Of a stretch of DNA of 64,000 nt, positions 48,868 to 64,000 are shown in pieces. The position numbers and the translations under genes were made by a program. How positions within the stretch are numbered: the stretch's first letter is position 1; every line of letters starts with the position of its first letter. The stretch is from assembly GCA_964291625.2 (NCBI GenBank), contig OZ220090.1, positions 896,001 to 960,000 of the forward strand, given 5' to 3'. Below the pieces are notes generated by a model. It was not told where the DNA came from, did no database searches, and worked only from the letters and a program-made list of their open reading frames with translations. The stretch is from Candidatus Latescibacterota bacterium. GTDB lineage: Bacteria; Latescibacterota; UBA2968; UBA8231.

Positions 48868-49776
48868 ATGCGCTACGACCCGGAGAACCGCACCTTCGAC
48901 TGCGACCCCACCCTGAACGACTCCCAGGTCCTCGAGTTCTGCCGCGAGGGCTACCTGATGCTCCACGGCGCCGTCCCCGACGAGATCAACGAGCGCACCT
49001 GCCGGTACCTGAACGGCGAGATCCCCGTCAGTCCGTCGTGGTTGCCGGAGGGTGTGACCATCGCGGAGGTCGAGCGCATGCGCGAGACCCACGAGCCGAG
49101 CGGGATCCTGCTCGAGGACTGGTTCGTCGAGCACGTGCTGCTGAACCCGGCCCTGGCCGGGGCCATGCGCTCCCTCCTCGGCGCCCATACGGGGCTGCCC
49201 GTGCTGGTGAGCAACCACCGGGTCGAGTGTCCCGCCGAGGCCCAGGGCTGGCACCACGACGCCGACCGGGTCTTCGGCCCGGAGCTGGAGTTCGCCGAGG
49301 TCTTCTACTTCCCCCAGGACACGCCGCCGGAGCTGGGGCCCACCGAGATCGCCCCCCGCACCCACATCTCCCGCAGCGACGGCGACTTCACCGGCGAGAG
49401 CGTCCTCGCCGGAGGGCCCGCCGGCACCCTCGGCATCCACCACCAGAGCATCCTGCACCGCCGCGGCGCCTCCACCGCCTCGGGGGTGCGCCACATGCTC
49501 AAGTACAACTACTGGCGCACCTCGCCCCCCTGCCGCGACTGGATCGAGGACCCGGCCTTCGACCCGCGCACCGCCTGGTACGGCGGCCACGCCCACTGCC
49601 AGTACGTGGCCCACATGCTCTGGTGGCTGCAGGGCCGGGGGGACGAGTACCGCATCCTCGGGGGCCAGGGCTGGCCCTTCCGCACCCCGAACCAGATCGG
49701 CCCGTCCTACGGGTACGGACGGCCGGACGGGTACCAGCCCGACTGGCGCCGGAACCCGGACGGGTACTCGCGCTGA
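48868..49776 (+). CDS. PhyH-like Fe(II)/2OG dioxygenase
   Basis: FCREGY, WHHDAD, FPQDTPPELGPTEIAPRTH, ILHRRG, RHMLKY. Confidence 0.75.
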   Translation: MRYDPENRTFDCDPTLNDSQVLEFCREGYLMLHGAVPDEINERTCRYLNGEIPVSPSWLPEGVTIAEVERMRETHEPSGILLEDWFVEHVLLNPALAGAMRSLLGAHTGLPVLVSNHRVECPAEAQGWHHDADRVFGPELEFAEVFYFPQDTPPELGPTEIAPRTHISRSDGDFTGESVLAGGPAGTLGIHHQSILHRRGASTASGVRHMLKYNYWRTSPPCRDWIEDPAFDPRTAWYGGHAHCQYVAHMLWWLQGRGDEYRILGGQGWPFRTPNQIGPSYGYGRPDGYQPDWRRNPDGYSR

Positions 49777-49913
49777 GGCTGGACAATCCCGCGCCTCTGC
49801 GCGACAACTCTTCCCCAGCCGGGTAACTCGACACGGAGACCCCGGGGCGTCCCGAACTGACGACTCCGGGGCTGTGTCTACGAGATCAGGCGCCGTGGCA
49901 CGAGCGGCGCTCC

Positions 49914-52900
49914 CTACCGGATCAGGGCGATCTTGCCGACGCGGACCTGGCCGCCGGCGATCAGCCGGTAGAGATAGAGGCCGGAGGCCGCCGGCCGGCC
50001 GTGCTCGTCGATGCCGTACCATTCCCGGGCGTGCCGCCCGGCCTCCAGGATCTCGCCTCCCACCAGCTCGGCCACGACCTGGCCGGCCACGTTGTAGACG
50101 GTCAGGGTCACCGGGCCCGCCTCCGGCAGCTGGAAGTGCAGGGTGGTGCTCGGGTTGAAGGGGTTGGGCGCAGGCCGACCGCCAAGGAGCCGGCCGGCCC
50201 CAGTCCGTCCATCCCGCCGACGGCCACCGGCTTGGCGACGACCACCACTTCGTCTTCGCCGGGCTCGGGGACCTCGCCCTCGGGCATCAGTTCGTCCTCG
50301 GTCTCTTCGTGGACCCCCCGGGCTCCTCCGGAGGCGCCGGGACCCAGGGCCGACGCCGAGACCTGGGCGGTGGTGCCGTAGCCGACAGCGTTACGGGCCC
50401 GCACGTGGAAGACGTACGAGGCGCCGTCGTCGAAGTTGCTCCACGACTTGCTGCGGGCGTCGGCCCCGCCGGCGCGGCGGTACCAGCCGCGCCAGTTCTC
50501 GTCCCCGGTCTTCTTGTAGCGGTAGTAGTAGTGCAGGACGGGCGAGCCATTGGCCGGCGCCGCGCCCCAGGTCAGCTCCATGAATCCGTTGCCGCCCTGC
50601 CGGTCGGTGGCCAGGTTCGTCGGCGCCCCGGGCAAGGTGGCCGGCGTCGCCGAGGCGCTGGAGGCGGCCCCGTCGCCGACGCTGTTGTGGCCCCGCACCT
50701 CGAAGGCGTACGACGTGCCGTTGGTCAGCCCGGTCACCGTCGTGTCGCGGGCGCTGCCGGCGCCGGGCACGGCCGTCCAGCCCGCGCCCGCGCGGCGGAT
50801 GTCATAGCGGTCGACGGCGGCGCCCCGGCCGTCGGCCGCCCCCCAGGAGAGGGCGACCTGCGCGTTGCCGCGCACGGCGCGGAAGCTTGGCGGCGCCTTG
50901 GGCGTGTTCGCCCGCACGACGCCGGACCGGCCGGCCGCGCTCTTGCCCGAGCCGTGGTTGTCCGTGTAGCTGACCGACGCCTCCAGACGCTTGCCGACAT
51001 CGGAAGCCGGCACGGTGTAGCGGTACGACTGCACCGAGGAGGCCTGGCCGGCGGCGCCGCTTTCGGTACTCCAGGACCAGGTCGGCCCGGTGATGCCTCC
51101 GTCCTCGTCGGTGAGGGTGGCCGTGACATGCTCTCCCACCTTGGGACGGCCGCGATCCAGGGTGACGACCCCCGGGTCGTCGGCGTTGGTCACCGTCACC
51201 GTCACCGGACGACTCGCCGACGCCGACCCGTCGGTGACCTGCACGGTCACGCTGTAGGAACTCTTGGCCTCGAAGTTGGGCGCACTGTTGAATCTCAGCG
51301 ATCGGGACGACCCGGTACCGGACAGCTCGCGGAAGTCACTGGCGTCGGTCCCCGCCCGCGACCACGTGAGCGGGAGCGTCGCATCGCAGGCGCTCGAACG
51401 CGTGACCCTGTAGGTGCCCACCGATCCGGTGCCGTTCTCGGCGTAGTTCACATCGGTCGAGCCCGACAGAGACAGGACACAGGGCACCGGGGTCCCGTCG
51501 ATGCCCGCCGCCAGGCTCCGGCCGGCGCCGTTGGCGGCCCGGATCTCGAAGCGGTAGGGCACGTCGTTGTCGAGCCCCGGAACCGTCACCGACGTACCCG
51601 CCGCGCCCCCGCTGTCCTCCCACGCCGTCTGCGACTTTTTCCGGTACCAATACCGATACCCCGTGATCGTCGAGCCGCAGTTGTCCGGGGCTCTCCAGGA
51701 CAGCGAGACCCGCCGGTCGGCCCCCGTCGATCTCAGACCGGTCGGCGTTCGCGGGGTGTTGGCGGCCACCGCCGCCGAGGTCAGGGTGGCCGTATTCCGG
51801 TCCGAGGCCCGATCCCCGTACCTCACGGTCACCCGCAGGGTCTTCCCCACGCTCGAATTGGCCGGCAGGTAGCTCCGGGTCGTGGAGGTCCCGGCCGAAC
51901 CGCTGGCCGCCGCGACCTGCGGCTCCCACTCCCATCCGTAGGTGAAAGTCGGCGGAGTCGTCGGAGATGCGGAAGCCTCCGTATTGATCCCGGCGTCCTC
52001 GTCCTTGAGGGTGGCGTTCACATGGGCGCACGTCATCGGCGTGGATGGGGACAGGGTGATCGTGCCCGCCTCGGGCCGGTTGGTCACCGTCACCGTCACC
52101 GGCTTGCTCGAGGACGCCTCCGGCGAGCCGTCGTCGGTGGCCACGACCGTGACCTTGTAGCTGTTGTCGGTGTCCGCATCGTCGGCCGACTCGAAGTTTG
52201 GTATCGAGCCGAAGCGCAAAGCGCCGCTGTCGGAGGGATCCTGGAAGTCGGCGGCGTCCGCGCCCAAGAGACTCCAGGTGACGCTGTCCTCTTCCGGGTC
52301 GGTGGCGGTGTAGCTGGCCACCGTAGCCGTGGTGGGGGTGTTCTCGGGCACCGACTTGCTGGACGGCCCCGTGATCACCGGCGGCTCGTTGACGTCGGTC
52401 ACCCGCACCGACCTCGGGAAAGTGCCCGCGCTGCCGGACGGATCGCTCACCCGGATCGTGACGGAATAGATGCGCTTCGCCTCGTAGTTGGGCGCCGAGA
52501 CGAAGTGCAGGGACCTCTGGTTGGGGTGCCCGGTCACAGCGCGCAGCTCCTTGAAGCTGCTGGCGTCCGAGCCCGTCCGGCTCCACGTCAGAGGGCCGCA
52601 GAGGGAACTGGCCGACGCCTCGTACACCCCGACCGTGGGCGTCGAGTTCTCCGGTACGTCCGTCTTTGAGACTTCCGAGACCGTGATCACGCATTCCGGG
52701 TCCGCCTCCGGCGTGGCCGAGGCCGGGCTCGAGGCCGGCCCTTCGCCCACCGGATTGACGGCCCGCACCTCGAAGGTGTACCCGGTGCCGTTGTCCAGCC
52801 CCGTGACGGGGTGGCTCGTGGCATCGCCGGCGATCGGCGGGGTCTCGGGCCACGCCGACCAGGTGGACCCGGCCGTGTGGGCGCTGTCCCGGTAGGCATA

Positions 52901-55900
52901 CCCGGTGATCCACGCCCCGTTGCTGTCGGCCGCGGTCCAGCGCAGGGTCACCCGGCCGTCGCCGGCCGTCGCCTGCAGAGACCCAGGCGCCCCCGGCACG
53001 TTGGCCCGCACCGCCGCCGTGGTGTCGCTGACCGCCCGGTCCGGACCATGCCCGTCGGTATAGGTGACCTTGGCCAGCAGGCGCTGGCCCTTGACCCGGT
53101 CCTCCACCGTGTAGCGCTGGCTCTGCGCCGGGGCCTGCCTCCGCTGCCGGGTGGACGACGCGCCGTCCAGCTCTTCCCAGCTCCAGCGGTCGTTGGTCAC
53201 GCCTTGGTCCGGGTCGGTCAGGGTGGCCGTCAGGTGCATGCCCACCCTCGGCTCCATCGTGTTCAGGGTCACCCGCCCCGCCTCCGGCGCGTTGGTCACC
53301 GCCACCGTCATGTCGTGGGAAGCCGAGGCCGCCGGCTCCCCGTCGTCTTTGACCGTGAGCGTCACCTCGTAGAAGTTGTCCTCGTCCGCGTCGTCCGGCG
53401 CCTCGAAGTCGGGCGCCGTCTCGAAGTAGAGGGTGTCCCCCCGCACCTTGAACAACCCGACATCGGCCCCCGCGTGCGACCAGGCGATGGCCTGGCCTTC
53501 CGGGTCCGTGGCCGACAGCGTGGCCACCGAGTCGGTGCGGTGTTCGGCGAACCACACCGTGTCAGGTTCCGTGATCACCGGGGGCCGGTTGCCGCGGTTG
53601 CCCTGCGGCGTCGCCCGGACACTGTCCGCCCGGCCGTAGCCCTCGCCATTGTGGGCCCACACCTGGAACACGTACTCGATGTCGTTGTCCAGAGCCGTCA
53701 CCGTCGTGTCCCGGGCGCTGCCCCCGCCCGGGACCGCCGACGAGTCGCGGCCGGCCCAGTTCGGGCCGCTGCGGTAGCGCAACTCGTAGCGGTCGATGGC
53801 CGAACCGTGGGCCGCCGCCGCCGTCCAGGTCAGCTCCACCTGCCCGTCGCCCGCCTCGGCCTGCAGGTCGCCTGGAGGGCCCGGCACGTTGGCCCGCACC
53901 GCCGCCGTGGTGTCGCTGACCGCCTGGTCCGGACCATGCCCGTCGGTATAGGTGACCTTGGCCAGCAGGCGCCGGCCCTTGACCCGGTCCTCCACCGTGT
54001 AGCGCTGGCTCTGCGCCGGGGCCCGCGTCCGCTGCCGGGCGGACGAGGCGCCGTCCAGCTCCTCCCAGCTCCAGCGGTCGTGGGCCACGCCTTGGTCCGG
54101 GTCGGTCAGGGTGGCCGTCAGGTGCATGCCCACCCTCGGCTCCATCGTGTTCAGGGTCACCCGGCCCGCCTCCGGCGCGTTGGTCACCGCCACCGTCATG
54201 GCGTGGGAGGCCGAGGCCGCCGGCTCCCCGTCGTCGGTGGCCGTGAGCGTCACCTGGTAGAAGTTGTCCTCGTCCGCGTCCGCCGGCGCCTCGAAGTCGG
54301 GCGCCCTGAAGGCGGGCGTCATCTTGAAGGAAAGGGTGTCCCCCCGCACCTTGAACAACCCGACATCGGCCCCCGCGTGCGACCAGGCGACGGCGTCGTC
54401 TTCCGGGTCGGAGGCCGACAGCGTGGCCACCGAGTCGGTCCGGTTTCGGCGAACCACACCGTGTCCGGCGCCGTGATCACCGGGGGCCGGTTGCCCCGGT
54501 TGCCCTGCGGCGTCGCCTCCTTCTCGGCCGGGGTCCCGAGGTTCACCCGGTTCCGGGCGGCCACCCGAAACCCATACGGCGTGCCGTTGCTCAGCTCGGT
54601 GATCGTCGTGTCCCGCGCTGTCGAATCCCCCGGCACCACCGACCAGGTCACGTCCGACCAGTCCACCTCGGCCCCCGAGTGGCTCTTGGGGGCATACTGA
54701 ACCTCGTAGGCGGTGATCGGTGCGCCGTTGGAGTCGGCCGCGGTCCAACTCAACGCCAACTGCCCGTCGCCGGGCTCCGCCGTGAAGTCCCCCGGCGCCC
54801 GAGGCGCCCCCGCCGGCGTGACCGTCGTGTCCACCGACGCCCCCGCCGCCGCCCCGGTGTAGGCCCGCACCTCGAAGGTGTGGGCCACCCCGTTGCTCAG
54901 TTCCTGGGGCAGATAGCGAGTCCAGCCCTTCAGGAAATCGAACCAGGCCGTCGTGTCCCCGGGGACGATCTCGCGGTAGTGATAACCCAGCAGAGGCGAC
55001 CCGCCTGTCGTCCCCGCCGCCGCCCAGGTCAACAATACCTGTCCGTCGCCAGCCTCCGCTTTGAAATTCCGCGGCGCCGACGGCCCCACCGGGATGTCCG
55101 TCGACCAGGCCCCCGCCGGGCGCGACCGCACCCGGTACCGGTAGCGGTACTTCACGTCCAGGGGGTGGCGCTCCGTGGACGGGGTGTGCTGGAAAGTGAC
55201 TCTCATGTCGGCCGACGGCAGGCTCTCGTTGGCCAGCGTGGCCAGCCAGGCATACTCCGACCATCCGGACGTCCCTCTGACCAATTGCCGCTGGAACTCC
55301 AGCCGGTACCCGGCCGCGGCCGGGACCGCCTTCCAACGGACCTCGATCCCTTCGGCGCTTGCGTGAGCGCTCCCCTCTTTCGGGGCCGCAACCGGCGGCG
55401 GCAGCTTGGCGAAGCCGTGGCCCCAGGTGTTGTCCGGACTAGAGTGACGATCTGCCTTGGACTTCAGGTAATCGGCGATCTTCTTCGGGGTATCGTGGAT
55501 GTCGCCCAGCTCCTGGATCACCAGCGCCGCCAGACCCGCCACCCGGGGGGCGGCGATGCTCGTGCCCGACTCACCGCTCTCCAGGCCGCCGACGAGGTCA
55601 GGCTTGATGCGGCCGTCGGGTGTGGGCTCGGGGGCGGGGCCTCGGGCGCTGTAGGCCTTGATTCCAGGGGGATCGGACAGGTCGGCGGCCCCCACGGCCA
55701 GCATGCCCGTATTGGCGCTCTCCGCGGGATTGCCGATGCTGCCGGTCATACTGGCGTCCTGCCAGGGATCGGATCGACCCGAGAAATCTTGCAGTTGAAC
55801 CCATCCGGGAGAGCTGCCACGGAGTCTCCTCACACTCAACCAGTATTGGCCCGCCGACCAGATGGGGGACTCGGTATCCATTAGAATCTCCATCGGAACG

Positions 55901-57558
55901 GCACGATCTCCGGTCTGGGAGCCCGTTGCACTCCCAGCCAATCGCAGCCCCGATCCGGGTACATTGTGATACAGGAAGAGATCCAGATTGATCGCCGGGC
56001 CCGTCCAGGCGTCCTTCCAGCGCAACGCGAATCGGGGACCAGACGCATTCACGCGGATAGGGAGGCTGACTGTTGGTCCAGGAAACACCAGGTACCCGTC
56101 CGAGTCGAAGTTGGGTGAGTTCGAATACCAGGTGCGCTGAGCATCATTGCCCGCCGCGTTGACCCAGACGATCCCGGAGTTCACGGCGGTATCCACCAGC
56201 TTCAGGGGGCTGGCCATATTGGGCGACGTCCCATCTCCAGGTCCGTCCCAATGATTGTTGACCGAGTAATTGATCACCTGTACCCCATTCCGGATCATCC
56301 AATCAAGAGCCTGATTATTCTGAACTTGTCCCATTGTCTTGTGCGTCTTCGATATGTACAACTCCACATTGGGCGCAATGTCCAGAAGCGCTCGTGTGAC
56401 ACCTGTGCCATGTGGGTCCTCTCCGCAATCCCCAAGACCCGTGGAGTCAGCAACCGTATCTTCCTCGTTCGCATAGCAGTAGGTATGGTACGACGGGTTC
56501 AGGTCCTCCAACGCCTCCATCAGGTCGCCGAAGCCATGGAAGCCAATGTCGAGGACACCCACCTTGATGCCGTCACCCCGGATCCCGGCGGTGCGCCAGG
56601 CCGTGGCCCCGTGCGCCGTCGAGGCCGTCGTTGACGACGACCCCTCGGACCGGCTATGCTGGGGGACGGCCTCCAACACCTCCCGGAGACGGATCACACC
56701 GGGCTGTTCCGACAGACGCACGAGGAGCGACACCGGCACGCGGGCCCAGAGAAGTCCTTGCACGCCATCCCCGCCATCGCTCCGCCAGGTGTTCGAGGCG
56801 ATGCCCCGGCCCTTGAGAAAGCGGGCTACCGTGTCGACGCTGTCCCGACTGTTCGTTTGTATCCTCACCGGAACGGTTGGGGTCGACCCTGGCCCGCCCT
56901 GACCGCTGACCGCCGACTGCCCCCCCGGGGACGAGGCCTGGTAGCCCTCGACACGGCTGTTGAGGGAGGACCCGAGCTCGGGATACTGGAGAGGCCGGGG
57001 CAGATCGTGCACGCTGAGGCCGGTCAGACCCGACAGCGATGACGCGTCTCGAAGCGGGTTGAAGGCGAGATACAGATCAGCGAGGTCGGTCAGACCCGAC
57101 AGCGACGACACGTCCGCGACCTCGTTGACCTGGAGGTTCAGAAAGGTCAGGTCCGTCAGACCCGACAAGGGCGTCACGTCCGCCACCGAGTTGCCCGCCA
57201 GGTGCAGCCACGTCAAGCCGGTCAGCCCTGACAGCGGCGACAGGTCGGAGACGTCATTGCGGTTGGACCAGGGCAATTGCTCGGGCCTCGGCCCAAGGTG
57301 CAGCCGGGTCAGCCCGGTGGCGTGCTCCAGGCCGGTCAGGTCGACGATGCCCGCGTCCGGTGCTTCCAAGGTGGTCAGCTCCGCCAGGGAGGCCGCGGGG
57401 ATCGGGTCGCCCGACGACAGGCCGAGGCTGTCCTCCAGCACCGCCCGCAGGGCGGCGTCCGGGACGGTGACTTCGTCTGCAGGGTCGTCCTGCGCCCACC
57501 CGGCCGGCAGGCCCGTCCAGGTCAGCCCGAGGGCCAACAGAATCGCAAAGCAATGCAT
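49914..57558 (-). CDS. Giant secreted LRR, propeptide, S8 subtilase, FN3/cadherin repeat and FlgD-tail protein, with two frameshifts (~54445 and ~50180)
   Basis: Signal peptide, internalin-like LRR, catalytic triad VGVLDIG / PHGTGV / GTSIAAPRVAG, FN3 and cadherin (PDFE, PNYEAK) repeats. Tail PNPFNPST...VYNVAGQ...W.G.DE.GRPAASGLYLY lies in another frame. ORFs 54319..57594, 50108..55336 and 49914..50111 join up. Confidence 0.82.
52992..54516. repeat. Intragenic direct repeat of ~620 bp (about 52992-53612 and 53880-54516)
   Basis: Near-identical DNA encoding QGNRGNRPPVIT...SDTTAAVRANVPG twice. Confidence 0.85.
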
Positions 57559-57612
57559 GGTCTTCCTCTTCGGATGCATGTTGTGGATTCTCAACGGCAG
57601 CTGCTCCCCGCC

Positions 57613-58755
57613 CTACGGGAAGAGGCTCTTGATCGCGCCCCAGGACGATGCTTCCACTCCGGTGCCAGGAAGGTCGGAACCACACCCGTCCTGGCCACCC
57701 GCACCGGAATCACCGCTTTCGCCTCCAGTTGACGTGGCAGGAACCGACTCCAGTATCGTCTCGACGCGAGCCACGGAGGGCAGTTCGGACAAAGGCACCA
57801 GCAGCGGGATGGGTACACAGGCCCAGACCGTGTTGCGCACCCAGTCGGCGTCTTCGCTGCTGCGACGGCCGATGTGCACTCTGGTGATACAGTGGTCCTC
57901 CAGGAAACGGACGGCTCGGTCGATGCTGCTCTCTTCCGTGCCCAACAGAATACCCACGGGGACTGAATGGGGGGGCTTCGACGGGTCCCAGCTGTAGAAA
58001 TCCGGCTTTGACGGGTCCCAGTCGTCGGAAGTCGGAAATCGCGAGACGCAGCGACCTGGATCGATTTCGTCCGTCGTCCGGCCCCACCGGAGCGCCTCCT
58101 TGTAGCTATAGACAAGACCGTTCAAGGAACTATCCAGCTTCGGCCACAGGTTGGGACCCGCGAAAATGGGATAGATCCACAGCGTTCCCGTTCCCGTCCG
58201 CGGCAGCCAATCGTCCAACTCCAACGTCGGGATGAGATTGTACCCCATATGCAACTCCCTGAGCCTGGTCAGGCCCGACAGCGACCTCAGGTCCGAGATC
58301 CTGTTTACTTCCACGTTCAGCGACCTCAGGTTGACCAGGCCCGACAGGGGCGTCACGTCCTCCACCGAGTTGCCCGCCAGGTCCAGCCAGGTGAGGCCGG
58401 TCAGTCCCGACAGCGGCGACAGGTCGGAGACGGCGTTGGTGTTGGTCCAGGGGTCTCCGTTGGTGTTGGTCCAGGGGTCTCTCGTGATGGCCCCCGGCCC
58501 CAGGTCCAGCCGGGTCAGCCCGGTGGCGTGCTCCAGCCCGGTCAGGTCGACGATGCCCAAATCGGGCGCCTCCAGAACGATCAGCTTCGCCAAGGAGGAC
58601 GCCGTGATCGAGTCGCCCGCCGCCAGACCGAGGCTGTCCTCCAGCACCGCCCGCAGGGCGGCGTCGGGCACCGTCACCTCGGCCGGGGAGTCGTCCTGCG
58701 CCCAAGCGGCCGGCAGGGCCGTCAAGATCGTCAGGAGACAGATGCGGATACGCAT
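57613..58755 (-). CDS. Secreted LRR protein, type A (WDPSKP), SWGAIK tail
   Basis: Signal peptide, VPDAALRAVLEDSLGL cap, LRRs, C-terminal VEASSWGAIKSLFP. GGAGG RBS. Confidence 0.85.
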   Translation of the reverse strand: MRIRICLLTILTALPAAWAQDDSPAEVTVPDAALRAVLEDSLGLAAGDSITASSLAKLIVLEAPDLGIVDLTGLEHATGLTRLDLGPGAITRDPWTNTNGDPWTNTNAVSDLSPLSGLTGLTWLDLAGNSVEDVTPLSGLVNLRSLNVEVNRISDLRSLSGLTRLRELHMGYNLIPTLELDDWLPRTGTGTLWIYPIFAGPNLWPKLDSSLNGLVYSYKEALRWGRTTDEIDPGRCVSRFPTSDDWDPSKPDFYSWDPSKPPHSVPVGILLGTEESSIDRAVRFLEDHCITRVHIGRRSSEDADWVRNTVWACVPIPLLVPLSELPSVARVETILESVPATSTGGESGDSGAGGQDGCGSDLPGTGVEASSWGAIKSLFP

Positions 58756-60146
58756 GGGATCATCCTCCCGGGGCAAGGACAGTCGTGGGACCCACTTGCC
58801 GGGCCCTTGAATGGTGCGTCACAAGCAAGACCATCGCCGCGCTCCCCTACCGGATGAGGCCCAGCTTGCCGAATGTACAGCTCCACGTCCGGGGCGATGT
58901 CGAGCAGGGCTTGCGTCACATTCGTGCCATGCTCGTTCCTCAAGCGTACACCTTCCATGGCTCCGCAGTTGGCAAGACTCGCGTTGTTCCCGTCGAATGC
59001 CTGAGCATCCGGGCCCGAAAAGCAGTAGGTATGCCACGACGTACTCTGCTTGCCGAGTTGCGTCATCCGCGCTTGGAAGTCATCGAAGCCGCCGACATCG
59101 ATCACACCCACCTTGATACCGGCGCCACGGATCCCGGCCTCGCGCCACGCGGTGGCCCCGTGCGCCGGGGCGGCCGTGATCGTCGACGGCGTCGACGGCG
59201 GCGTCCCGGATCCGCCCTGGTGAGGGATGGCCTCCAGCACTTCCCTGACACTGATCACCCCCGGCTGCTCCGACAGACGCACCAGAAGCCGCAAGGGCAC
59301 ATGGGCCCAGAGAAGTCCCTGCACGCCGCTTCCTCCATCGCTCCGCCAGGTGTCCGAGGAGATACCCTGGCCATCGAGAAAGCGGGCGACCGTATCGACG
59401 CTGTCCCGGCTGTTCGTGCGGATTCTCACCGGGACAACGGAGTCCGACCCTTGGTGACCCTGGCCCCGGGCGGACCTTCCCTCGGATGACGAGCCCTCGC
59501 TCTCCCCCACCTGACGGCTGAGCGAGGAACCCAACTTGGGATGCCGGGGAGGCCGGGGGAGGTCATACACGGTGACGTCGGTCAGGCCCGACAGCGACGA
59601 CGCATCCTGCAAAGGATTGAAGGCGAGATACAGATCGGTGAGGCCGGTCAGACCGGACAGCGAGTCAGCGTCCGTAATTTCGTTGACCTGGAGGTTCAGA
59701 AAGGTCAGACCGGTCAGGCCCGACAGGGGCGTCACGTCCGCCACCGAGTTGCCCGCCAGGTGCAGCCACGTCAGACCGGTCAGGCCGGACAACGGCGACA
59801 GGTCGGAGATGGCGTTGCGGTTGGCCCAAGGGTCCCCCGTGTCGACCGGCCCCAGGTTCAGCCGCGTCAGCCCGGTGGCCGAGTCCAGCCCGGTCAGGTC
59901 GACGATGCCCTTGTCCGGCGCCTCCAGGGCGGTCAGCTTCGACAGCGAGGCCGCAGTTATGGGCTCGCCCGCCGACAGGCCGAGGCTGTCCTCCAGCACC
60001 GCACGAAGAGAGGCGTCCGGGACCGTCACCTCGTCCTGGGATTCGCTTTGCGCCCAACTGGCCGGCAGGCCGGTCAAGCTCAGCCCAAGAGTCACCACAA
60101 TCCAGAAAGCGTGCATGATCTTCGTATGCTGATTCATCATCTTCAT
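58731..60146 (-). pseudogene. Truncated paralog of the LRR-subtilase
   Basis: LRR, propeptide, VGVIDVG and EHGTNVTQALLDIAPDVELYI, then homology breaks at ~58870. Catalytic Ser region is absent. Confidence 0.75.
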
Positions 60147-61256
60147 CTATAGCGGGTGAGGGTGGGCAATTCGGTCCGGCCTACCGGAAAACGGTCCTTG
60201 AGCGCGCCCCAGGACGCCCCTCCGACCGAGGAGATATCAGGGGGAGCGTCCCCGGAGGGGTAGACGGAATTGTGCACGTACTCGATCAGTGCGACCTGGG
60301 ACAGTTCGGACAAGGGCTCCACCAGGGGCAGGGGCAAGCAAGCCCAGACGTGGTGGGAGTAGCGGGGGGGGGCCGTGGATGAGGAAGCGAGTGATGCCGT
60401 GGTCCTCGAGCCAGCGGACGATCACGTCGACGCTCTCCTGCGTCTCTGGATCTACGAAAATGTCCGTGGCGAGCGAGGGGGCCGGCTTCGAGAAGTCCCA
60501 AGGAGGGAATCTTGTGACGCAGGGCCCCTCGGGATCGACCCGGTCCGTCACCCAGCCCAAGCGGAGCGCGTTCTTGTATTCATGGACCGCGTTTTCGCAA
60601 CGGCCGGACAGCTTGGGATTCAGTCGGACACGGGGGAGAATCCAGCGCCCGGAGAAAATCAGATAGGTTGTTCCTGCCACCCGCGCCATGCGATCCTCCG
60701 GCAAGGGCCACTCGTACAGAATCGGGTTGAAAGCGACAAACAGATCCCTGAGCTTTCTCAGGCCGGACAACGACGAGAAATCCGAGATGTAGTTGACTTC
60801 CAGGTTCAGCCACCTCAGCTCGCTCAGGCCGGCCAGCGGCGTCACGTCCGCCACCGAGTTGCCCGCCAGGTCCAGCCAGGTCAGAGCGGCCAAACCTGAC
60901 AGCGGCGACAGGTCGGAGACGGCGTTGGTGTTGGCCCAGGGATCCGCCATGGCCCCCGGCCCCAGGTTCAGCCGCGTCAGCCCGGTGGCCGAGGCCAATC
61001 CGGTCAGGTCGACGATGCCCTTGTCCGTGGCCTCCAGCGCGGTCAGCGTCGCCAGCTCGGACGCAGTGATCGGATCGCCCGCCGACAGGCCGAGGCTGTC
61101 CTCCAGCATCGCACGAAGAGAGGCGTCCGGGACCGTCACCTCGTCCTGGGATTCAGGTTGCGCCCACCCCGGCGCCAAGCCTGTCAAGGTCAGCCCAAGG
61201 GTCACGGCAATCCAGAAAGCGAGCATGGTCGTCGTATGCTGATTCATCATCTTCAT
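60143..61256 (-). CDS. Secreted LRR protein, type B, frameshifted at a G9 tract (60364-60372)
   Basis: Near-identical to 61296..62336. With C8 or C11 it reads HGPPRYSHHVWACLPLPLVEPLSEL...SWGALKDRF. Confidence 0.78.
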
Positions 61257-61295
61257 TCTTCATCAGAGTGGGTGAGGGAGTAGACGGGGTCCGGC

Positions 61296-62336
61296 CTATT
61301 GGGAACGGTGCTTGATTGCGCCCCAAGACACCCCTCCGAGGGAGGAGGGAACGGGGTAGAAGTACGGAGACCAATAGATCAGGGCGACGCTGGGCAGTTC
61401 GGACAAGGGCTCCACCAGCGGCAGGGGCAAGCAAGGCGAGACCCAGGGGGAATCGGGGTATCTGCGCCTGGGCTCGTGGATGACAAAGTCCGTGATGCCG
61501 TGGTCCTCGAGCCAACCGACGACCACGTCGACGTTCTCCTGCGGACCCGGGTCTACATAGATCTCCAAGGAGAGCGCCGGGGCCGGCTTCGAGAGGTCCC
61601 AGGCAGGGAAACTGCCGAGGGCGGTGACGCAGGGCGCCTCCAGATCCACCCGGTCCGTCACCCAGCCCAAGCGGAGCGCGTTCTTGTATTCGTGGACTAC
61701 GTTTTCGCAACCCTCGGACAGCTTGGGATTCAGTCGGACACGGGGGAGAATCCAGCGCCCGGAGAAAATCAGATAGGTTGTTCCTGCCACCCGCGCCATG
61801 CGATCCTCCGGCAAGGGCCACTCGTACAGAATCGGGTTGAAAGCGACAAACAGATCCCTGAGCTTTCTCAGGCCGGACAACGTCGAGAAATCCGAGATAT
61901 AGTTGACTTCCAGGTTCAGCCACCTCAGCTCGCTCAGGCGGGCCAGCGGCGTCACGTCCTCGATCGAGTTGCCCGCCAGGTCCAGCCAGGTGAGAGCGGC
62001 CAAACCTGACAGCGGCGACAGGTCGGAGATGGCGTTGGTGTTGGCCCAGGGATCCGCCATGGCCCCCGGCCCCAGGTTCAGCCGCGTCAGCCCGGTGGCC
62101 GAGGCCAATCCGGTCAGGTCGACGATGCCCTTGTCCGTCGCCTCCAGCGCGGTCAGCTCCGCCAGGGAGGCCGCGGGGATCGAGTCGCCCGACGACAGGC
62201 CGAGGCTGTCCTCTATCACCGCCCGCAACGAGGCGTCCGGGACGGTGACTTCGTCTGCAGGGTCGTCCTGCGCCCACCCGGCCGGCAGGCCCGTCCAGGT
62301 CAGCCCGAGGGCCAACAGAATCGCAAAGCAATGCAT
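61296..62336 (-). CDS. Secreted LRR protein, type B, SWGAIK tail
   Basis: MHCFAILLALG signal, LRRs, C-terminal GGVSWGAIKHRSQ. Confidence 0.85.
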   Translation of the reverse strand: MHCFAILLALGLTWTGLPAGWAQDDPADEVTVPDASLRAVIEDSLGLSSGDSIPAASLAELTALEATDKGIVDLTGLASATGLTRLNLGPGAMADPWANTNAISDLSPLSGLAALTWLDLAGNSIEDVTPLARLSELRWLNLEVNYISDFSTLSGLRKLRDLFVAFNPILYEWPLPEDRMARVAGTTYLIFSGRWILPRVRLNPKLSEGCENVVHEYKNALRLGWVTDRVDLEAPCVTALGSFPAWDLSKPAPALSLEIYVDPGPQENVDVVVGWLEDHGITDFVIHEPRRRYPDSPWVSPCLPLPLVEPLSELPSVALIYWSPYFYPVPSSLGGVSWGAIKHRSQ

Positions 62337-62390
62337 GGTCTTCCTCTTCGGATGCATGTTGTGGATTCTCAACGGCAACTGCTCCCCGCC

Positions 62391-63532
62391 CTACCGGAAA
62401 AGACTCTTGATCGCGCCCCAGGACGACGCTTCCACTCCGGTGCCAGGAAGGTCGGAACCACACCCGTTCTGGCCACCCGCACCGGAATCACCGCTTTCGC
62501 TTCCAGTAGAGGTTTGAGGAAAGGACTCCGATGGCGGCCAGACCCGAGCCACGGAGGGCAGTTCGGACACGGGCACCAGCAGCGGGATGGGTAGGCAGGC
62601 GTATACTGCAGTGCGCACCCAGTCGGCGTCTTCGCTGCTGGGTCGGCCGATGCGCACTCTGGTGATACAGTGGTCCTCCAAGAAACGGACGACCATGTCG
62701 ATGCTGCTCTCTATGTCGATGCTGCTCTCTTCCGTGTGTAACAGACGGATGCGCACGGGGACTGAATGGGGTGGCTTCGACGGGTCCCAGACGTAGAAGT
62801 CCGGCTTCGACGGGTCCCAGTCGTCGGAAGTCGGAAATCGCGAGACGCAGCGACCTGGATCGACCTCGTCCGCGTCCGGCCCCACCGGAGCGCCTCCTTG
62901 TAGCTATAGACAAGATCGTTCAAGGAACTATCCAGCTTCGGCCACAGGTTGGGACCCGCGAAAATGGGACAAATCCACATCGACGTTCCCGTCCGCGGCA
63001 GCCAATCGGCCGACTCCAACCTCGGGATGAGGTTGTACCCCATATGCAGATCCCTGAGCCTGGTCAGGCCCGACAGCGACCTCAGGTCCGAGATCTTGTT
63101 GACTTCCACGTTCAACCACCTCAGGTTGACCAGGCCCGACAGGGGCGTCACGTCCTCCACCGAGTTGCCCGCCAGGTCCAGCCAGGTGAGTGCGGTCAGG
63201 CCCGACAGCGGCGAGAGGTCGGAAACGTCATTGCTGTTGGTCCAGGGGTCTCTCGTGATGGCCCCCGGCCCCAAGTCCAGCCGGGTCAGCCCGGTGGCGT
63301 GCTCCAGCCCGGTCAGGTCGACGATGCCCGCGTCCGGTGCTTCCAATGAGGTCAGCTTCGCCAGGGAGGACGCCGTGATCGGGTCGCCAGCCGACAGGCC
63401 GAGGCTGTCCTCCAGCACCGCCCGCAACGAGGCGTCCGGCACCGTCACTTCTGGGGTGTCGTCCTGCGCCCAACCGGCCGGCAAACCCAGCAGGGTCAGC
63501 CCAAGGGCCAGCAGTATCGTACTGCAGTGCAT
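62391..63532 (-). CDS. Secreted LRR protein, type A, 1-bp frameshift near 62873
   Basis: Paralog of 57613..58755. The two frames join at WGRT/ADEVDPGRC and end in SSWGAIKSLFR. Confidence 0.78.
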
Positions 63533-63599
63533 TTTCTTCCTCTTCGGTTGCATTGTGTGGAGTTCCAAAGGGCAGCTGCCCGCCCTACCGGAAAAGACT

Positions 63600-64000
63600 C
63601 TAGATCGCGCCCCAAGACGACACCTCCACTCCGGTGCCAGGAAGGTCGGAACCGCACCCTTCCTGGCCACCAGCACTAGCATCGCTGCTCTCGCTTCCAG
63701 TGGAGCTGGCAGGAAAGGAGCCCGGTGGCATCCTGACGCGAGCCACGGAGGGCAGGTCGGACAGAGGCACCAGCAGGGGCACCGGCACACAAGCGTAGAC
63801 TGTGTTCCAGCCCTGCTCTCCGCTGGGGACTCGGGAGATGAAGAAGTCCCTGACGATGATGCAGTAGCCCTCGAGGAAGGCGACGACTCTGTCGATGCTG
63901 CTCTCTTCCCTGTCAAGCAGATTCTTGATGCGGACCGAAGCTGAATGGGGTGGCTTCGATGGGTCCCAGATGAAGAAATCCGGCTTCGACGGGTCCCAGT
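63600..64000 (-). CDS. C-terminal part of another type A LRR protein (5' end off the window)
   Basis: WDPSKPDFFIWDPSKPPHSASVRI...VYACVPVPLLVPLSDLPSVARV...SSWGAI*. The K codon AAG is replaced by TAG. Confidence 0.8.
   Translation of the reverse strand, partial: WDPSKPDFFIWDPSKPPHSASVRIKNLLDREESSIDRVVAFLEGYCIIVRDFFISRVPSGEQGWNTVYACVPVPLLVPLSDLPSVARVRMPPGSFPASSTGSESSDASAGGQEGCGSDLPGTGVEVSSWGAI

Follow-up and report, generated by a model that had tools for sequence, protein, structure and literature searches.

A tandem array of leucine-rich repeat proteins ending in a subtilase prodomain-like domain, upstream of a giant S8 protease gene in a Latescibacterota genome

The stretch of DNA described here (the window; 64,000 nucleotides, contig OZ220090.1, positions 896,001 to 960,000) belongs to Candidatus Latescibacterota bacterium, whose genome is assembled in two contigs (5.9 Mb, 70% G+C), and sits on the 1.13-Mb contig. 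Its end holds a giant gene for a protease of the subtilase family S8 and a tandem array of shorter genes, most of which code for short proteins composed of leucine-rich repeats (LRRs) and a C-terminal domain resembling a subtilase prodomain. From 49.9 kb to the end of the window and 2 kb past it, every gene lies on the minus strand. Whole-genome tblastn with the LRR part of copy B as query detected eight LRR copies in tandem on the contig of the window and one on the other contig. Coordinates are window positions unless contigs C1 or C2 (the two contigs of the genome, the window being on C2) or L-numbers (other stretches) are named. G000 denotes the source genome, G153 a sister species of the same genus and G055 a genome from another genus.

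The array passes the edge of the window, which copy G straddles and outside of which copy H is located. B, E and G code for intact short proteins, frameshifts interrupt D, F and H, C encodes an S8 protein that is cut short, and A is the giant S8 protein. Open reading frames are abbreviated as ORFs in the following list.

49929-50168 (C2:945929-946168), minus strand: third frame of the giant gene, type-A sorting domain of the type IX secretion system (T9SS), TIGR04183 at 31.8 bits against a cut-off of 23.
50108-55336, minus strand: second ORF of the giant gene, Fn3 and cadherin-like repeats, 1440 residues (Pfam fn3 4.9e-48, Cadherin 7.7e-15).
54319-57594, minus strand: copy A, first ORF of the giant gene, 1091 amino acids; signal peptide, LRR (about 57058-57573), prodomain (56662-56982), S8 domain (about 55384-56577) and two Fn3 domains.
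57613-58776, minus strand: copy B, intact short protein of 387 amino acids; signal peptide, LRR, prodomain-like domain (57739-58143), low-complexity linker and the tail SWGAIKSLFP.
58731-60146, minus strand: copy C, 471 amino acids; LRR, prodomain and an S8 domain truncated behind the catalytic Asp and His.
60143-61256, minus strand: copy D, short type; 8-base deletion relative to E at about 60368, with the tail SWGALKDRF out of frame and extended.
61296-62378, minus strand: copy E, intact short protein of 360 amino acids, tail SWGAIKHRSQ.
62391-63553, minus strand: copy F, short type; 1-base deletion relative to B at about 62872, giving the pieces 62711-63553 and 62391-62885.
63600-64000 (3' part; whole gene C2:959600-960775), minus strand: copy G, intact, 391 amino acids (P0007), ending in SWGAI and a stop codon.
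L001 795-1989, outside the window: copy H, two 1-base shifts relative to the intact relative P0020.

Read across its frames, the giant protein has the order LRR, prodomain, S8, Fn3/cadherin and T9SS C-terminal domain (T9SS-CTD). It is encoded by the genome's only gene of its S8 subfamily, and the array lies directly upstream in the same orientation. Pfam recognizes LRR_4, Peptidase_S8 (residues 340-488 and a second stretch) and fn3 in copy A, and a match to TIGR03921 extends to residue 737, placing the S8 domain where the initial annotation of this DNA had put it. The catalytic D, H, N and S are all present. An AlphaFold2 (AF2) model of residues 205-752 shows the subtilisin fold, with subtilisin matches at Z 28-29.6 in a structure search, the listed matches being filled by chains of catalytic domains. 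The gene carries two frameshifts. At about 54470 one base is missing in comparison with an internal repeat, which splits the S8-Fn3 ORF from the Fn3/cadherin ORF; four read runs have no indel row there, coverage at the exact place not being shown. The second frameshift, at about 50176, sets the sorting domain out of frame, as seen in three-frame translation. In run X1, one contig shows an additional G behind 50176 (depth 6 of 26.1) that, by reading of the sequence, rejoins the frames, and this break is therefore either polymorphic or an assembly error. Because the genome codes for T9SS machinery (SprA with 607.5 bits summed, two PorU with 571.7 and 536.7 bits) and contains 102 matches to Por_Secre_tail, the giant can be read as putative surface-displayed T9SS cargo. 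TIGR04183 had no match at E<=0.1 in the short proteins.

The initial annotation had aligned the C-terminal domain of the short proteins by eye with the segment between LRR and protease in the S8 proteins, and had likened it to the I9 propeptides of subtilases. Homology to this segment is confirmed by whole-genome tblastn. The C-terminal 176 amino acids of copy B match the LRR-S8 linker of copy A with 39% identity over 79 amino acids (E 2.1e-7) and that of copy C with 37% over 75 amino acids (E 1.7e-5), and the reciprocal search gives E 7.5e-8. Alignments of the copies agree with this. A profile built from eight paralogue segments finds 136 proteins at E<=1e-3 in a collection of 1.84 billion representatives. 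One homologue has the source label Gemmatimonadaceae. Among the 61 best matches scanned, ten contain Pfam Peptidase_S8, and wherever both domains were mapped the matched domain stands N-terminal of the catalytic one, often in two copies. The S8 part of copy A belongs to a subfamily of more than 1000 members in the same collection. A consensus of 36 of these keeps the region YPNLxSxL ... ESVAVTIY ... YIEAYVPVSLL ... SEQPGVxRVREI before the mature start AHGAxAW.

The fold points in the same direction. AF2, given an alignment of eight paralogues, models the domain with a predicted local distance difference test score of 81.8 and a predicted template modelling score of 0.78, with strands 60-67, 89-92, 105-111 and 124-129 and helices 71-82 and 112-119. 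In a structure search against all of 48161 chains, the top match is the N-propeptide (ProN) of Tk-SP (PDB 3afg; Z 8.4, rmsd 2.0 over 82 residues), and the runner-up reaches Z 6.5. The 50 matches listed include ten more entries with subtilase prodomains or prodomain-like inhibitors: the PCSK9 prodomain (Z 6.0), PAM protease chain B (5.9), the I9 inhibitor POIA1 (5.6), pro-subtilisin E (5.4), CspB (5.3), the TKS propeptide (5.2), Aspergillus fumigatus alkaline protease (5.1), the BPN' prosegment (5.0), the cucumisin propeptide (4.7) and EpiP (4.7). In the ESM Atlas, CspB_prodomain clusters account for 23 of 30 named feature matches, with scores up to 0.95, which we take as a lead only. Foldseek against PDB returned nothing at E<=0.001 for the domain model; in its weak rows, the PCSK9 prodomain and Tk-SP ProN appear next to ferredoxin-like folds (S6, ACT/RAM).

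Sequence profiles do not carry the assignment to I9. PF05922 (Inhibitor_I9) has no match at E<=0.1 in the eight proteins, at E<=10 in the eight domain segments or at E<=1 in the whole genome. Pfam and NCBIfam recognize nothing but LRRs in the short proteins, and at E<=10 the domain segments give only scattered single Pfam matches (for example Propep_M14, 0.029, in one member). A sequence profile search of PDB yielded nothing below E 0.27. Comparison by hhalign of 151 domains of the family with six genuine I9 domains of the phylum is weak (P 0.0016, probability 16%), in the right register. Our conclusion is that this S8 subfamily has the domain as its prodomain, with an I9-like fold outside the I9 profile. 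The annotated propeptide identity is thus upheld in fold and in position (in A, in C and in many S8 relatives), and not as a profile match.

Several relatives show variations on this architecture. Five S8 proteins (P0033, P0034, P0039, P0063 and P0070) have two tandem prodomain copies before the catalytic domain. In the subfamily sample (alignment A3, relatives of 55339-56631), the catalytic Asp is missing in 5 of 36 sequences and the catalytic Ser in 6 of 36, and some of these relatives may be pseudo-proteases. Proteins with two to five tandem prodomains and no S8 domain were considered as a new architecture. Many of them end just after the prodomain or at the S8 start, and we therefore treated them as probable gene-call fragments.

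The short genes were also initially described as adding a SWGAIK tail. This is true of B, E and F; G ends in SWGAI and a stop codon and D carries SWGALK out of frame. The tail is not special to the family. Of 26431 ORFs with 100 or more amino acids, 62 have the pattern WG.[ILVM]K among their last 14 residues, as compared with 0-4 in each of five upstream control windows. Its carriers come from unrelated families, are often arrayed, and include six tandem paralogues on C2. Examples are:

57613-57640 of the window.
L002 4585-4614.
C2:1083343-1087759.

It is often preceded by [ST]AVE..S, and the residues after its K vary (SLFP, HRSQ, DRFK, AALR and others). No curated family for the tail was found in NCBIfam. 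Judged from these counts, the WGxIK tail is a genome-wide C-terminal tag, not a feature of this family, and a candidate for an uncurated sorting signal. As such it would mark the short proteins as exported and as sorted by a route other than that of the giant.

The copies differ from each other unevenly. Their LRR parts are 61-93% identical and their prodomain-like cores 26-84%. The near-identity of LRR parts reported at first applies only to the N-terminal cap and the first three repeats, which hardly vary; three types can be told apart by the last two repeats and the C-terminal cap. Divergence at synonymous sites (dS) is about 0.42 in the LRR as against 0.5-1.3 in the core (distant pairs). 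Blocks of identity form a mosaic: 41 codons of the signal-peptide region are identical between E (61296-62378) and A (57470-57594), the S8 gene of the sister species G153 carries the signal peptide of F (L012, L013), and the C-terminal 117 codons of E are base-identical between the two species, with dS of 0.088 in its LRR. From the lower dS of the LRR and these mosaic blocks, we infer that the 5' parts are kept alike by recombination and gene conversion, and not just by stronger constraint. Signal-peptide and LRR modules are shuffled among the copies and between the two species. Copy B and its G153 counterpart share an 8-residue tandem duplication (DPWTNTNG/DPWTNTNA) in the irregular second LRR, at about 58420-58470.

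In the core, the pairwise ratio of nonsynonymous to synonymous divergence (dN/dS) is 0.37-0.59 for closer pairs, which corresponds to relaxed purifying selection. Positive selection was rejected: dN/dS exceeds 1 only in saturated distant pairs (dS 0.5-1.3), which were not counted. The per-domain comparison suggested with the initial annotation hence shows relaxed constraint in the diversified domain and no positive selection. Matches to the profile are present in five of the 71 family genomes and, among nine other genomes of the genus, only in G153. The array evolves by gene birth and death, through duplication, recombination and decay.

Decay could in principle be the whole story. The array would then be debris of duplications that arose by unequal recombination at the 5' end of the S8 gene, with most copies functionless. 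The 8-base deletion of D, the 1-base deletion of F, the two 1-base shifts of H and the truncated S8 of C would all fit, as would the last tail residues lost from G, the two frameshifts in the giant gene and the patchy spread just given. The 3' end of copy C overlaps the start of copy B, and only residues 1-89 of the S8 catalytic query are matched in it (50.5% identity). The break in D is backed by an X1 contig at 60015-60567 that equals the window sequence. At the break in F, which X1 backs as well, X1 (depth 17.1) has no insertion and one contig of an RNA library (depth 2.2) has 7 extra bases. We nevertheless consider this explanation improbable. Intact short proteins of the same architecture occur in several genomes with dN/dS below 1, characters specific to the short form are conserved in 16 of 17 sequences, the shifts of H may be assembly errors, and one frameshift of the giant gene is polymorphic in a metagenome run. 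Both shifts of H (L001 about 1187-1320, corresponding to C2:961187-961320) fall in runs of C (5 and 7 C); they could be either homopolymer assembly errors or slipped-strand on/off switches.

A promoter and terminator scan of 49500-64000 gave two promoter-like sites (0.8 expected) and three terminator-like sites (5.8 expected) and is uninformative. One RNA library yields small contigs on parts of A, B, F and G, which is no proof of transcription. Joints between array copies are seen in read data with sides of mostly 21-24 letters, for which repeats or relatives are a possible source.

The short form itself was examined by aligning 17 short domains with 12 S8-linked ones, taken from several genomes. 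Three features are present in 16 of 17 short and in none of the 12 S8-linked domains: an insert between the N-terminal helix and strand 1 (GRVTxxVxPGxC ... F..WDPSKPAPS), a cysteine within this insert, and a strand-3 cysteine (ACVP) in place of the R/Y/S/Q/H/D of S8-linked domains. The WGxIK tail is present in 24 of 144 classified proteins, and all 24 have a single prodomain and no S8, the S8 label of this classification having also taken in some proteins that match only distal parts of the profile. In G055 one short protein has a core that is, by eye, far nearer to the neighbouring S8 prodomain than the cores of the other G055 short proteins are. It still keeps the insert, both cysteines and the tail, and for this reason the short-specific features look selected. 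The short form is a distinct and conserved subtype rather than debris.

Short genes are also linked to S8 genes beyond this window. They stand directly upstream of a prodomain-S8 gene, on the same strand, at five loci of three genomes: the present one in G000, one on contig C15 of G153 and three in G055, where the adjoining S8 ORFs are 781, 1268 and 5092 amino acids long. The initial description of the short proteins as stand-alone, diversified and linked to the giant S8 gene therefore stands. It had further presented them as a repertoire with a cognate protease, and here the outcome is mixed: B, E and G are whole, whereas three of the six short copies and, twice, the protease gene are frameshifted in this assembly.

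What such proteins do can be read in two principal ways. The one we favour, tentatively and at somewhat less than an even chance, is that the short proteins bind the matured S8 protease in trans as mimics of its prodomain and serve as inhibitor, regulator or adaptor. The protease would cut off its own prodomain, and a short protein would then dock on the catalytic domain in the manner of the cleaved prodomain. Once docked, it would keep the enzyme in an inactive state or equip it with a different LRR module, at the envelope or on the surface of this sponge-associated bacterium; recombination between copies would supply variants. In its favour are the homology and fold of the domain, the conservation of the short subtype, its linkage to S8 genes and the purifying though relaxed selection. 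The reading follows precedents in eukaryotic stand-alone mimics, in the gene adjacency of SUB1-ProM and in the Aeromonas ASP chaperone. PMC6993865 describes stand-alone proteins resembling propeptides that inhibit their cognate subtilases, with SUB1-ProM encoded next to subtilase genes; according to PMC5638518, a separately encoded chaperone adjoins the Aeromonas ASP gene. Complex prediction with the catalytic domain of A (A3) and the C-terminal domain of B (A2), run without controls, gave scores of 0.14 and 0.24 against a mark of 0.32, which speaks neither for nor against binding.

A number of observations weigh against action in trans. Besides the missing I9 profile match and the frameshifts in half of the short copies and in the protease gene, an extra copy lies on C1 with no S8 match nearby. 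The S8 genes that adjoin short genes all keep their own prodomain, so a copy in trans is not needed for folding. In the giant, this prodomain has dN/dS of 0.14 between the two species and is far more constrained than the short proteins. Residues just after strand 4, where the helix-capping residues of BPN' and SUB1 sit (PMC6993865), are R/E-E/K-like in the 12 S8-linked domains and variable in the short ones (ETIL, RMPP, IYWS, VGII). The alternation of conserved core residues suggests that the strand-3 cysteine of the short proteins lies on the open face of the sheet, and if it were disulfide-bonded to the insert cysteine, the insert would be drawn across this face, which it may cover. In I9 complexes, the open sheet face packs on the protease.

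The putative disulfide-held insert, the separate prodomain of every linked S8 protein and the variable residues after strand 4 make another explanation the main rival: that the short proteins are LRR surface proteins of the "eukaryotic-like" kind, engaged in interaction with a host through ligands bound by the LRR. Their prodomain would be a stable, self-capped stalk or spacer before the sorting tag, no longer in contact with a protease, and their adjacency to S8 would stem from partial 5' duplication. We regard this as a doubtful but serious possibility. LRR genes abound in the genome (dozens of tblastn matches to LRRs), and parts of this DNA were found in 22 of 24 listed runs from 11 studies, many of the runs being labelled sponge metagenome. 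It would also suit this explanation that the insert and cysteine pair may cover the protease-binding face, that the residues after strand 4 vary, and that type-specific differences lie in the last two LRR repeats and the C-terminal cap, the first three repeats being near-invariant. Copy C shows that partial duplication of the S8 gene does occur here, and the C1 copy is fused to YWTD-propeller repeats far from S8. On the other side, the order of a short gene followed by S8 at three separate loci of another genus is more than one duplication history easily gives. Helix 2 and strand 4 of the short proteins (xCVPxPLLVPLSELPGV) are as conserved as in true prodomains, and there is the G055 short protein whose core, by eye, is so near to the neighbouring S8 prodomain.

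The ninth copy (L002 702-3608, C1:3998701-4001607), far from any S8 gene, forms one open frame. A stretch resembling a T9SS-CTD is joined in it to six propeller repeats of the YWTD type, an LRR and a tailless prodomain-like domain of the short type, after which come 25 residues from the start of another LRR unit.

A further variant of trans-binding, which we consider unlikely, makes the short proteins interchangeable subunits of the surface protease, on the pattern of PCSK9, whose prodomain is never released. They would dock by prodomain mimicry on the T9SS-displayed S8 after it sheds its LRR-prodomain part and so swap its LRR head; with recombination and frameshift switching, this would create a variable combinatorial protease/adhesin directed at the sponge host. 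Still less probable, and in our view very much so, is that the short proteins are trans-acting foldases needed to mature the S8 protease, as ORF2 is for the ASP protease of Aeromonas sobria. An adjacent, separately encoded chaperone of a subtilase is known (PMC5638518), and the prodomain fold is shared; but every linked S8 protein here keeps its own, strongly constrained prodomain. ASP is said to be propeptide-deficient, going by the title of Kobayashi 2015. The body of ORF2 reportedly resembles a propeptide. Both decay debris and an obligatory foldase are less likely than the LRR surface protein explanation.

If binding in trans is true, a bacterial prodomain mimic equipped with an LRR, a sorting tag, a recombining array and a giant surface protease would be a novel means of regulating or targeting a protease outside the cell, and some of the LRR "eukaryotic-like" proteins that abound in sponge symbionts would gain a concrete, testable function. 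For annotation, it is of value that Pfam misses the prodomain of an S8 subfamily counting more than 1000 proteins and that the WGxIK tail is an uncurated candidate sorting signal. Bacterial LRR-prodomain proteins were not found described in the literature searched, with most subscription journals outside its reach.

Known systems close to this one include the stand-alone inhibitors of MEROPS family I9 (Pleurotus POIA1, yeast PBI2, Arabidopsis SPI-1), together with Toxoplasma MIC5 and Plasmodium SUB1-ProM. POIA1 is a structural match (Z 5.6) and, as in the case of SUB1-ProM, the gene adjoins one or more subtilase genes (PMC6993865). The examples named in PMC6993865 are all eukaryotic, have a single small domain and are present in single copy. 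Here, in contrast, the domain stands behind an LRR, has an insert with two cysteines and a sorting-type tail, occurs in up to eight recombining copies and lacks a match to the I9 profile. ORF2 of the ASP system is, like the present genes, bacterial, separately encoded and adjacent to a subtilase gene (PMC5638518). Its position is different: ORF2 is found on the downstream side of a protease that is described as lacking a propeptide, whereas several short genes lie here upstream of a protease with its own prodomain. The nearest solved folds are the Tk-SP N-propeptide (3afg) and the PCSK9 prodomain, with alignments spanning the N-terminal helix and the core; those are covalent parts of precursors, and identity to them is 13-16%. 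The LRR portion, with its period of 22 residues, is of the internalin type: Pfam LRR_4 and LRR_8 score above their cut-offs, and internalin models are the best NCBIfam matches. Class 1 internalins (NF033189 and relatives) differ in that they are matched over the LRR region only, at 59.8-64.9 bits against a cut-off of 1600, and in that the present proteins have no LPXTG or GW anchoring and carry a prodomain after the LRR. The short proteins finally resemble the LRR eukaryotic-like proteins that are discussed for sponge symbionts.

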